A stretch of 64,000 nucleotides of DNA from Promethearchaeota archaeon (GTDB lineage Archaea > Asgardarchaeota > Hermodarchaeia > Hermodarchaeales > Hermodarchaeaceae), in the NCBI GenBank assembly GCA_048938385.1, contig JBHLMG010000001.1, positions 128,001 to 192,000 on the forward strand. Direction: 5' to 3'. Below the pieces are notes generated by a model. The model was given only the letters and a program-made list of their open reading frames with translations. It did no database searches and had not been told where the DNA came from. The translations under genes were made by a program, and so were the position numbers. Shown here in pieces: positions 43,594 to 63,854 of the stretch (positions are counted from its first letter, which is position 1; the number at the start of each line of letters is the position of its first letter).

Positions 43594-44535
43594 ATGACAG
43601 ACAAGTGTTACATGTGCAACGGCACTACCATTTTCTTTCGCCCCTACTCAGGAGAAGCTTTGTGTGAGAAGTGCTTCAAGGAATCCCTCATCACCTCAGT
43701 TCGTGCAGCCGTTTCCAAGTTTACAATGCTGCATCATACAGACCGAATTGCTGTGGCCTACTCAGGCGGCAAGGATAGTCTAGTCCTGCTTTCTACACTC
43801 ATAGACATTCAACGCCGCTTTCCCCATTCAGAAGTCATCGCAGTTACTCTCTTGGAAGGAAGTCAACACGATCAACAACGATTGAAAACTCAAACTGAAG
43901 TTACTCACCATCTAAAAGTTGAACATGTGACATCTACCTACCAGGAACTGTTTTCCCTAACCCTTGAAGACATTGTGGAACGCGCAAATATCTTACAGTC
44001 ACCCTTATCCGCGTGTGCATATTGTGGAACGCTCCGCAGACAAGGTTTGAACATACTAGCACGAAAGATTAACGCAGATAAACTAGCCCTAGGACACAAC
44101 CTCGATGATGAAGTACAATCCATGTTGATGAACCTGATTCGCGGCGACATTCAACGCCTCAGCCGAATCACTCCATTTCTTAAAGGAGTTCCTGGATGGC
44201 TTGTGCCTCGGATTAAACCTCTTTACCATCTTCTCGAAGACGAGATAGCCCTCTACGCCCAACTGCTTAAACTCCCCATTTACCATCCCCCATGTCCCTA
44301 CAAAGAAACATCAATGCGTTCAGAAATTCGTGAATGGCTCAATTCATTTGAAGCGCGACATCCTGGATCAAAATACAATCTCTACGCGACATTCTCAAAA
44401 ATCATTCAGGCTCTGGATTCGGGTGAAAAACCTCCATTTCAAAAATGTCGAACCTGTGGCGAAATCACATCACAAGAGATTTGTGCTGTGTGTTTACATC
44501 GAAAAAACCTCACAGAAGATTTTAGAAAAAGGTAA
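43594..44535 (+). CDS. tRNA 2-thiolation enzyme (TtuA/Ncs6 family)
   Basis: SGGKDS PP-loop, CAYCG, GHNLDD, PRIKPL, terminal zinc fingers. Confidence 0.9.
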   Translation: MTDKCYMCNGTTIFFRPYSGEALCEKCFKESLITSVRAAVSKFTMLHHTDRIAVAYSGGKDSLVLLSTLIDIQRRFPHSEVIAVTLLEGSQHDQQRLKTQTEVTHHLKVEHVTSTYQELFSLTLEDIVERANILQSPLSACAYCGTLRRQGLNILARKINADKLALGHNLDDEVQSMLMNLIRGDIQRLSRITPFLKGVPGWLVPRIKPLYHLLEDEIALYAQLLKLPIYHPPCPYKETSMRSEIREWLNSFEARHPGSKYNLYATFSKIIQALDSGEKPPFQKCRTCGEITSQEICAVCLHRKNLTEDFRKR

Positions 44536-44541
44536 AAAGGC

Positions 44542-44887
44542 GGACGGGAGCCCCGACGGTTGACAACCCTTCCTGACGCCGTGCTCACAGCCAGGTCTCG
44601 GACCCGGATCTCAGAAGCATCTACAGTACAGGCTTACGCTGCTCCCTCCCGGGTCTCGCTGGGTTCACCTGTTTAAGGCGATTCAGCCCTTCCTACGAAA
44701 AGCCTACCGCCACCAGCGATCCTCTGAGGCGGATCGTCACAGCCACGAACAGCGAGTCGTACACCAGGTCAGAAAGCCTAACATCGGCATTCAGCCTGCC
44801 TTATAGAGCATTTGCAGAACAGGGGAGCCTTAGCCAGCCCGTAGCGGTGCTGCGGGGCTTCTAGCCCCCCGCCTAGGCTCACCGTCC
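44542..44887 (-). ncRNA. ffs: SRP (7S) RNA with a candidate 29-nt BHB intron
   Basis: Terminal helix GGACGG.GAGCC/GGCTCCCGTCC; helix 6 GUAG tetraloop; helix 8 GAGACCC-GGGA-GGGAGCAG; Alu-like CUAGGCGGGGGG...CCCCUGU. Confidence 0.88.
44831..44859 (-). other. BHB-type intron in SRP RNA Alu domain
   Basis: GCUA/UGGC helix, bulges GA^A and UA^A, inner stem with ACC loop. Confidence 0.75.
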
Positions 44888-44913
44888 AACCTGCTTCCAC
44901 AACCTGGCGCTAT

Positions 44914-45414
44914 TTAACCATTTCTTTGTACACGATTTACTCGCCACACTTGAAATATGAACACAGGAAGAGCTAGAATAAAACAGACCCCACAAAACAG
45001 AAGCACCGTAGATGAAGAAGCAAGATAAAGGAAAGGATTACCCAACAACGGCCAAAAGGGTTGCATTTCTGGATAGAGGAAGGCATCTAAGATTACATGG
45101 GAGTAGGTTCCAAGCAAGGTCGCCAAAGTGAGTTTTGCCCGGGTAGTCGGTTGAGGAAGACGAAATATCTTCATGAGGTCTCCTAATATTCCTCGAAATG
45201 GGAAGAGAAGGAGGGAACCTAAGAGTGCAGCAATCGTCGCTCCAGCGAATGTGTGAAAAAATGTATGCCGCACGGGTAACCCGAGAAGGAGGAACACCAG
45301 CGGCTCAACATCAACGATAACGCTGCCGAGCAAGAATGCAGGGATATACAACAAGGGAAAAACCAGTAACCCGACTAGTAGGCTTGGACCAAAGTGAAAA
45401 GGAGTGAATGGCAA
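44914..45414 (-). CDS. Membrane protein, DUF4184 / metal-dependent hydrolase-like
   Basis: MPFTPFH start (TTG 45414), HTFFHT, SHVILD, PFWP. Confidence 0.75.
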   Translation of the reverse strand: MPFTPFHFGPSLLVGLLVFPLLYIPAFLLGSVIVDVEPLVFLLLGLPVRHTFFHTFAGATIAALLGSLLLFPFRGILGDLMKIFRLPQPTTRAKLTLATLLGTYSHVILDAFLYPEMQPFWPLLGNPFLYLASSSTVLLFCGVCFILALPVFIFQVWRVNRVQRNG

Positions 45415-46065: not shown

Positions 46066-46174
46066 TGGTGGGCCGAGGGGGACTCGAACCCCCGACCATC
46101 GCGGTGTAAGCGCGATATCATAGCCTTCTAGTCTGCAAGGATGTATTCCTTCGAGATAACTAGACTATCGGCCC
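46066..46174 (-). tRNA. tRNA-Val(TAC) with 32-nt D-loop BHB intron (46126-46157)
   Basis: CUAG/CUAG helix, UU^A and AA^G bulges; mature 77 nt. Confidence 0.92.
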
Positions 46175-57484: not shown

Positions 57485-57604
57485 GTGGCGCAGTTCACAC
57501 TTTTCCCGACACCTCTCGGACATCAGTACTCAGGGCGACGAAGCCGGCTTAACTTCCGGGATCTGACGAGACCGGGTGTGACCCAGCTTCTATGACCGCG
57601 CCAA
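57485..57604 (-). rRNA. rrf: 5S rRNA
   Basis: GGTCATAG...CACCCGGTCTCGT...CCCGGAAGTTAAGCC...AGTACT; terminal helix TGGCGCGG/CTGCGCCA; 120 nt. Confidence 0.93.
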
Positions 57605-62367: not shown

Positions 62368-62964
62368 TCAGCTTCCGGCTACAATATCTGCAGGCGCGAC
62401 TAGATAGTAGGTGGGTTCACCTTGACGGTCTAACACTGCAAGCATCAATTTCTTGCGATTGCGTTTTGCCTGTTTGGTGAAAACATCAAGTTCTGTTACT
62501 TTGAGAGGAGAACCTTCCGAAATAGTACAGACGAAATACTTAGCTGTTGCTTCATTAAGTTTGGCACCACGAGGATAAACCCGAAATAACAACCCTTTCC
62601 CATACCCAGTACGGACAACATAGCCCCTACTCCGTAAATCGCTGTACACAAGAAAGCGTGTCCATAGCCCCAATTGCTTCTCTGCGAGTCGTTCAAGGAG
62701 AACCGAAAATTCCAGCGTGTTCTTCTTTAAATCCTTCACCGAGATACGTTGCCGTCTCAGTAGCAATAATGCCTCTTCGGGTTCAAGGATAAGCGTTTGC
62801 GAGTCTTTCAAAGTTCCGTAATACCCGGCTTCAAACAATAGTTTCGCATGTTGCCCTGTGATTACCACGCGACCACGGGTTAGCTTTGCTTGAATGGGTT
62901 CATCGGGGAGTTGAGATCGTTCATCGCTGGGCGTATCATCCTCAATGGTTTTTTCCTTGGTCAT
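62368..62964 (-). CDS. endA: tRNA splicing endonuclease subunit, probably the structural (beta) type
   Basis: GYYG, EEALLLL, FLVYSDLRSRGYVV, FRVYPRG, RKKLMLAVLD; no His at the expected catalytic position. Confidence 0.85.
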   Translation of the reverse strand: MTKEKTIEDDTPSDERSQLPDEPIQAKLTRGRVVITGQHAKLLFEAGYYGTLKDSQTLILEPEEALLLLRRQRISVKDLKKNTLEFSVLLERLAEKQLGLWTRFLVYSDLRSRGYVVRTGYGKGLLFRVYPRGAKLNEATAKYFVCTISEGSPLKVTELDVFTKQAKRNRKKLMLAVLDRQGEPTYYLVAPADIVAGS

Positions 62965-63030
62965 CCTTGAACACCATCTCAAGCGAAAAGAGGCGAAGCT
63001 ATATAACCTCTTCCCGTCACCCCCAATTTA

Positions 63031-63562: not shown

Positions 63563-63695
63563 CCCGGCGTAGCTCAACCTGGTAGAGCGTCTGGCTGTAG
63601 GTTAACACCGCACCCTGAGCCATCTTGGCAATGATTCGGTGCCAACCAACGCAGATACCAGATGGTTCCTGGTTCAAATCCGGGCGCCGGGACCA
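63563..63695 (+). tRNA. tRNA-Tyr(GTA) with 56-nt intron at 37/38 (63601-63656)
   Basis: C1-G72, CUGU/GCAG helix; mature 77 nt. Confidence 0.92.
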
Positions 63696-63746: not shown

Positions 63747-63854
63747 GCCCGTTTAGTGTAGCCAGGTCTATCATCTGGGACTGTCAATGGTCTATACTCG
63801 ATATAGGCCAATGGATCTCCTAGGACTCGGGTTCAAATCCCGGAACGGGCGCCA
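63747..63854 (+). tRNA. tRNA-Asp(GTC) with 30-nt intron at 37/38 (63787-63816)
   Basis: CUGU/AUGG helix, CA^A and AU^C bulges. Confidence 0.92.

Follow-up and report, generated by a model that had tools for sequence, protein, structure and literature searches.

A candidate BHB intron in the helix-3 loop of the SRP RNA of Hermodarchaeia

The DNA analyzed in this work (hereinafter, the window) is a stretch of 64,000 nt from a Promethearchaeota archaeon of the class Hermodarchaeia (GenBank assembly GCA_048938385.1, contig JBHLMG010000001.1, positions 128,001-192,000). An Rfam scan of the whole window revealed a match to the Archaea_SRP family (RF01857) on the minus strand with a score of 117.7 bits and an E-value of 4.4e-26, spanning model positions 1-317 of 317. 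The gathering score of this family is 96.5 bits, and the match was thus classified as a full-length archaeal SRP (7S) RNA gene. No second SRP RNA match was found in the 2.48-Mb assembly. The features of the gene and of the other loci considered below are listed in Table 1. Note that the putative TATA-like box lies at a distance from the RNA start that is typical for archaeal promoters.

Table 1. Features of the window that are discussed in the text. Positions are those of the window; RNA is written 5' to 3' on the strand given, and a caret marks a predicted cut site or, in spliced products, the exon junction.
Feature	Position	Strand	Remarks
SRP (7S) RNA gene	44545-44884	-	340 nt encoded; Rfam RF01857 match
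TATA-like box (putative)	44911-44917	-	TTAAATA; the conserved GGACGG start region follows after ~27 nt; read by eye
Terminator (inferred)	44525-44541	-	Two T-runs just 3' of the RNA; read by eye
Proposed BHB-type intron	44830-44860	-	31 nt; between G44861 (last base of the 5' exon) and G44829 (first base of the 3' exon); placed by covariation and likeness to uninterrupted relatives
Central helix H, exon strand	44863-44866	-	GGCU; pairs with 44832-44835 in 23/23 sequences
5' bulge	44860-44862	-	AG^A; 3 nt between H and h', no variation among 23 sequences; predicted cut after G44861
Inner helix h', 5' strand	44855-44859	-	AGCCC; 5 bp with 44836-44840
Inner helix h', 3' strand	44836-44840	-	GGGCU; pairs with 44855-44859
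Central helix H, intron strand	44832-44835	-	GGCU (GGCC in 8 relatives); U/C is the sole variation and pairs with G44866 either way
3' bulge	44829-44831	-	AA^G; predicted cut after A44830; no adjacent closing exon helix
Helix 4 hairpin, Alu domain	44796-44817	-	Stem CUGC/GCAG; Rfam match and covariation
Helix-4 loop motif	44804-44809	-	GCUCUA; partner of the spliced helix-3 loop UAG^GGC
tRNA-Val(UAC)	46066-46174	-	CCA encoded; missed by ARAGORN, below the Rfam cut-off
D-loop intron of tRNA-Val	46126-46157	-	32 nt; strict BHB, CUAG-UU^A ... CUAG-AA^G; H 4, h 5, h' 3
5S rRNA gene	57485-57603	-	Between tRNA-Pro and tRNA-Thr genes; ordinary appearance
EndA paralogue, beta-like subunit	62368-62982	-	PF01974, 67.3 bits; Thr at the position of the catalytic His
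tRNA-Tyr(GUA)	63563-63692	+	56-nt intron at position 37/38, hBH form without inner helix; no ARAGORN call
tRNA-Asp(GUC)	63747-63851	+	30-nt intron at position 37/38, strict BHB with two G.U central pairs; no ARAGORN call

The alignment to RF01857 contains a 33-nt insertion in the loop of helix 3, for which the consensus of the family has 2 nt. Direct reading of the minus strand from 44870 to 44819 gives GGGGGG CUAG AAG CCCCGCAGC ACC GCUACGGG CUGG CUAAGG CUCCCC UGU, which is exactly the sequence quoted in the original prediction, where a BHB intron in the Alu domain of the SRP RNA was proposed at this place. The unusual insertion alone could suggest that the gene is a decaying or non-functional copy and that the insert is junk. 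This explanation is exceedingly improbable, since no other SRP RNA gene is present in the assembly, the match lies above the Rfam cut-off, the interrupted gene is conserved across two genera, helix 4 has undergone compensatory changes and the SRP RNA of relatives is present in RNA libraries. As for helix 4, its stem is CUGC/GCAG in the window and CCGC/GCGG in relatives, with pair 66-85 being CG in 22 sequences and UA in one; this compensatory change in the window indicates that the gene is under structural selection. The RNA libraries are four metatranscriptomes, each from a different study and represented by its Logan contigs, in which RNA contigs of close relatives cover positions 44551-44811 only and leave 44812-44884 without cover; neither joints nor loose ends were seen at the insert. 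These contigs end at 44551-44554, near the T-runs of the inferred terminator. In one of them (run X3), an Illumina adapter abuts position 44554, which hints that this is where the cDNA of the SRP RNA of this relative terminates, close to the predicted 3' end.

The distribution of the insert was evaluated among the Asgard archaea. SRP RNAs of 338-342 nt with the same insert were found in 15 of 18 genomes of the same family, and all 23 distinct Hermodarchaeia sequences from genomes and metagenome contigs contained it. In a set of 151 Asgard genomes, most SRP RNAs were 307-319 nt long with an ordinary helix 3, and an insert within the helix-3 loop was restricted to the Hermodarchaeia and Atabeyarchaeia groups. 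The other long Asgard SRP RNAs carry an extra hairpin between helices 3 and 4 or differ elsewhere. The extra hairpin, of 16-25 nt, occupies the usual site of the UGUNR linker between the two Alu helices and was seen at loci L008, L009, L054 and L055 (family f7), L063-L065 (f18), L058-L062 (f19), L007 (f10), L038 and L075. These hairpins look like true structural expansions, since no BHB was recognized in them by eye, and expansions of the Alu domain are, judging from the sequences, tolerated in Asgard archaea.

An intron-less allele with the same exon sequences was found neither in the JGI metagenome contigs (0 records, compared with 15 that contain the interrupted form or sequences related to its helix 3) nor in the genomes of families f1 and f12 among the 400 Asgard genomes searched. 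The sole match to the spliced form among these 400 genomes belongs to an unrelated family with an ordinary helix 3, so it does not represent a precise intron loss.

The comparison with uninterrupted relatives was used to place the exon junction. In uninterrupted Asgard SRP RNAs, the helix-3 loop consists of 8 nt, the six central bases of which are complementary to the helix-4 loop, and the two loops change together from one uninterrupted family to another (UAGGGG/CCCCUA, UAGCGG/CCGCUG, UAGGCC/GGUCUA, UCGGGC/GCUCGA and UAGGGC/GCUCUA). Excision of 44830-44860 from the window RNA leads to GGGGGGCUAGGGCUCCCC, in which the loop CUAG^GGCU has the same architecture as in these relatives; the conserved mature structure of the host RNA is thus restored, including the covarying loop-loop pairs. 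The six loop-loop pairs are standard in 99% of cases across the 23 Hermodarchaeia sequences. G44829 and position 3 of the helix-4 loop motif form GU in 18, GC in three and AU in two sequences, C44827 and position 1 of the motif form CG in 22 and UA in one, and not a single unpaired cell was found at either pair. It is because of this covariation between the helix-3 and helix-4 loops, which is based on about four independent changes among close relatives, that the junction was set at G44861^G44829.

It had been expected that A44860, the base that follows the 5' exon, takes part in the loop-loop interaction. Pairing through the upstream bases A44860, G44858 and C44857 (UAGA(A)GC with a bulged A) can form in the window, and in the relatives it gives four mismatched cells at two pairs. 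A44860 itself faces position 3 of the motif as A-U in 20 of the 23 sequences and as an A.C mismatch in three, so that the place of the pairing nucleotide belongs to G44829 of the 3' exon instead. As a separate observation, loci L019 and L023 and their relatives (A1 column 78; two of the 23 distinct Hermodarchaeia sequences) have the helix-4 loop GCUCUC-UA instead of GCUCUA-UA, which breaks the first loop-loop pair while CUCUA persists two bases further on; the pairing register may have slipped in these RNAs.

The covariation described above fits equally well another explanation, namely that the 31 nt are a lineage-specific expansion of helix 3 kept in the mature SRP RNA, with the hairpin protruding between G44861 and G44829 and its flanks still pairing with the helix-4 loop. 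The extra hairpins without an obvious BHB in families f7, f10, f18 and f19 can be regarded as a precedent for such an expansion. To weigh the two explanations, the geometry of the insert has to be considered.

With the junction fixed, the positions of all BHB elements are also fixed: each strand has to contain a 4-nt central helix and then a 3-nt bulge cut after the second base, as is the rule for archaeal BHB motifs. At the junction in question, the central helix forms four of four pairs, two of which are G.U; one of them, pair 16-50, is GU in 15 sequences and GC in eight. The 3-nt 5' bulge AGA is flanked by this helix and by the 5-bp inner helix, in which only two substitutions were found, both C to U with pairing kept as U.G. 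A44831 and A44830 of the 3' bulge are invariant in the 23 sequences. Taken together, the segment GGCY and the following AA are invariant or change from U to C only, and the apical loop of the insert varies freely. The outer helix h has zero pairs in the window, since G44867 faces G44828, and the effective 3' bulge amounts to 4-6 nt. A strict hBHBh' motif, as drawn in the original prediction, is therefore absent, and the motif has to be described as relaxed (HBh'), with a 3' bulge that no exon helix closes.

The same two helices can be drawn in three nested registers that remove 27, 29 or 31 nt. One of them contains the central helix GCUA/UGGC, the bulges GAA and UAA and the inner helix described previously, all of which do exist, and corresponds to an intron cut as 44831-44859 (29 nt, with GA^A and UA^A). 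This register has four of four central pairs and a 4-bp inner helix, and UAGA can pair with UCUA in the window. It was nevertheless judged very unlikely, since A44860 meets a C in 3 of 23 sequences where G44829 pairs in all of them, and since the G44866-U44832 pair, which is G-C in eight sequences, must be open. In addition, its product would have not the UAGA loop that had been expected but a 6-nt UAGAAG, i.e., two loop bases more than in the uninterrupted relatives. A 27-nt cut, with the central helix CUAG/CUGG as in Atabeyarchaeia, was rejected due to the wrong loop size and poorer loop-loop pairing. Both of these registers require one or more basal pairs of the outer helix to open, and their products fit the relatives less well. 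On comparative grounds, the intron in the Alu domain remains the best-supported reading, with cut sites that are likelier 44830-44860 than 44831-44859. The encoded RNA of 340 nt would then be shortened to 309 nt by excision of 31 nt, in place of the step from ~346 to ~317 nt that had been calculated.

The shape of the motif should be read with caution. In the 95-nt G/C-rich stretch, 22 of ~2,350 junction pairs (~1%) have a full 4-bp central helix and one flanking helix; a BHB-like shape alone is thus weak evidence, because about 1% of junction pairs reach it by chance. The coincidence of BHB geometry with a junction that was fixed independently can be considered, as far as sequence comparison goes, meaningful but not overwhelming. 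The retained expansion receives support from the nearest-neighbour model: at the energy minimum (-27.8 kcal/mol), helix 3 forms an extended hairpin with a 3x2 internal loop, the bulges of which have a handedness that is wrong for EndA, and the BHB conformer (-21.8 kcal/mol) lies 6 kcal/mol higher. It is also in line with the missing outer helix of the full BHB. The hairpin is no more stable than shuffled sequences (z = -0.72), a single-sequence fold value that is uninformative. On the other hand, an expansion gives no reason for a 4-bp helix and a 3-nt bulge that place both cuts at the junction, nor for the conservation of the would-be linker GGCY-AA next to a variable apical loop. Moreover, the change from U to C at 44832 in 8 of 23 sequences breaks an A-U pair of the minimum-energy fold and strengthens the central helix of the BHB.

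An insert in the same loop was revealed in the SRP RNAs of Atabeyarchaeia (seven distinct sequences at loci L011, L012, L036, L073, L076, L084 and L086, two complete genomes included). It is 30-31 nt long, and its inner sequence is unrelated to that of the Hermodarchaeia insert. The Atabeyarchaeia motif is a strict hBHBh', GGGGGG-CUAG-GG^A-h'-CUAG-AA^C-UCCCC, in which all outer and central pairs are invariant (7/7), two pairs of the inner helix show compensatory changes on both sides, and the BHB is part of the minimum-energy fold in each of the seven sequences. Excision according to the BHB rule leads to UAGGG^C, a perfect complement of the helix-4 loop GCCCUA. Thus, the inserts of the two groups are alike in the loop and RNA that they interrupt, in length class and in the predicted mature loop CUAGGGCU, and they differ in the motif, which is strict with CUAG/CUAG in Atabeyarchaeia and relaxed in Hermodarchaeia. 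The junction in Atabeyarchaeia lies 2 nt 3' of that in Hermodarchaeia (UAGGG^C and UAG^GGC, respectively).

The strongest argument for introns rather than expansions is that the different inserts of two lineages display splice geometry, each at its own junction, and restore the same mature loop; an expansion kept in the mature RNA would provide no reason for a strict hBHBh' at the neighbouring Atabeyarchaeia site. All these characteristics allow us to assume, with a probability of about 0.8, that the 31-nt insert in the helix-3 loop is a tRNA-type (BHB) intron, whose removal the Alu domain would need in order to fold. That its cuts fall exactly after G44861 and A44830 is likewise probable from the comparison of sequences, and an expansion retained in the mature SRP RNA appears unlikely. 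A common origin of the Hermodarchaeia and Atabeyarchaeia inserts is not supported by sequence identity: over the whole RNA, the window SRP RNA is ~54% identical to those of Atabeyarchaeia, compared with 57-62% for several intron-less families. The similarity of the 3' ends of both inserts (GGCUA) is explicable by the requirement that each of them pair with the same exon.

The genome was also found to encode the enzymes that the splicing of such an intron would require, namely an EndA presumably of the type linked to broad specificity and the RtcB ligase. The EndA alpha subunit (contig C23; locus L071, 1474-2034, minus strand) gave an E-value of 6e-46 with chain 3P1Z_B of A. pernix and was aligned through the conserved YR, DH and RK motifs. 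The paralogue found in the window showed similarity to the M. jannaschii EndA (1A79, 2.2e-21), with Thr at the position of the catalytic His, and also matched the non-catalytic chain 3P1Z_A of A. pernix; by its sequence, it is probably a structural beta subunit. Its gene is separated from the SRP RNA gene by 17 kb and lies immediately upstream of two intron-bearing tRNA genes. Asgard EndA was previously assigned to the (alpha-beta)2 type with an L1 insert that is linked to a broad substrate range (PMC5829648).

A search for tRNA genes revealed only 23 matches in the genome, which is ~90% complete, and about ten of them were long (95-139 nt). Two long matches (C35:23852-23955 and C4:13566-13678) could not be resolved by script as genes with a single BHB intron, and a large number of tRNA genes may be interrupted to a great extent or may have escaped assembly. 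The tRNA-Ala gene has an intron of the hBH form. The central helix of the tRNA-Asp intron includes two G.U pairs, as does that of the SRP RNA insert. Relaxed HBh' and hBH motifs at non-canonical positions are reported among the BHB introns of archaeal pre-tRNAs (Marck and Grosjean 2003). The tRNA-Val gene, 1.2 kb from the SRP RNA gene, contains a D-loop intron in which CUAG/CUAG and AA^G form a frame similar to that of the SRP RNA inserts.

According to the proposed mechanism, GGCU of the exon (44863-44866) would pair in the precursor with GGCU of the intron (44832-44835) to form the 4-bp central helix. AG^A would then constitute the 3-nt 5' bulge, followed by the 5-bp intron helix, and AA^G would follow the central helix on the other strand, which gives the relaxed HBh' form. 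The heteromeric (alpha-beta)2 splicing endonuclease would cut after G44861 and after A44830, and RtcB would ligate the exons at the predicted junction GGGGGGCUAG^GGCUCCCC. The product would be a 309-nt SRP RNA with the helix-3 loop CUAG^GGCU, whose UAGGGC would pair with GCUCUA of the helix-4 loop and so provide the tertiary contact that folds the Alu domain. That cleavage and ligation take place in vivo is what we infer from these features.

Introns of the BHB type are also documented experimentally in rRNA genes of Crenarchaeota and in the cbf5 pre-mRNA. These represent non-tRNA substrates of the same endonuclease, as the SRP RNA would be, and differ from the present case in the host RNA. 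To our knowledge, the hosts of BHB introns are limited to tRNAs, rRNAs and one mRNA. Full-text literature searches revealed no published example of an internal SRP RNA intron, in agreement with what had been stated when the intron was first proposed. Neither the Atabeyarchaeia genome paper nor the census of Asgard tRNA introns (bioRxiv 10.64898/2026.10.13.758758) mentions SRP RNA.

The BHB introns of archaeal pre-tRNAs, those of the census (bioRxiv 10.64898/2026.10.13.758758) among them, resemble the proposed intron in their short length (31 nt here), the 4-bp central helix, the 3-nt bulge cut after the second base and the inner helix; the same EndA/RtcB machinery is encoded, and the host lineage is rich in introns. 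The differences are that the host here is the SRP RNA, that the exon half of the motif comes from Alu helix 3 and that the outer helix leaves the 3' bulge unclosed.

The closest case among SRP RNAs is the permuted and circularised SRP RNA of Thermoproteus tenax and T. uzoniensis, for which an ancestral gene 'with simple BHB introns' was proposed in the original study (Plagens et al. 2015, eLife, PMC4731332). Its maturation depends on BHB recognition by a heteromeric splicing endonuclease and on ligation, which is also what is predicted here. However, in Thermoproteus the ends of the RNA undergo processing and are joined into a circle, whereas in the present case an internal piece would be removed from the transcript of a collinear gene. 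Moreover, the site is located near the S-domain loop in those Thermoproteales and in the Alu domain in the Asgard archaea. On sequence grounds, a known type of intron most probably occurs here in a host RNA that is new to it.

A broader and rather doubtful reading can also be put forward, namely that in two Asgard classes the Alu domain needs the tRNA-splicing machinery in order to fold and that mobile BHB introns, exchanged with the D-loops of tRNAs, land repeatedly at CUAG of the helix-3 loop. It is raised because the D-loop intron of tRNA-Val has the same CUAG/CUAG and AA^G frame and because the introns of Hermodarchaeia and Atabeyarchaeia are located 2 nt apart with unrelated interiors. 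If this were true, BHB introns would be passed among unrelated RNA genes in those archaea that are most closely related to eukaryotes.

As regards annotation, covariance models lose ~30 nt of alignment at this locus, and similar cases may score below the threshold. If the intron, located in the loop that nucleates folding of the Alu domain, is real, it would provide a clean natural substrate for studies of relaxed-motif recognition, and the intron-rich RNA biology of Asgard archaea would reach beyond tRNAs. Co-translational protein targeting in these organisms would then depend on EndA and RtcB.
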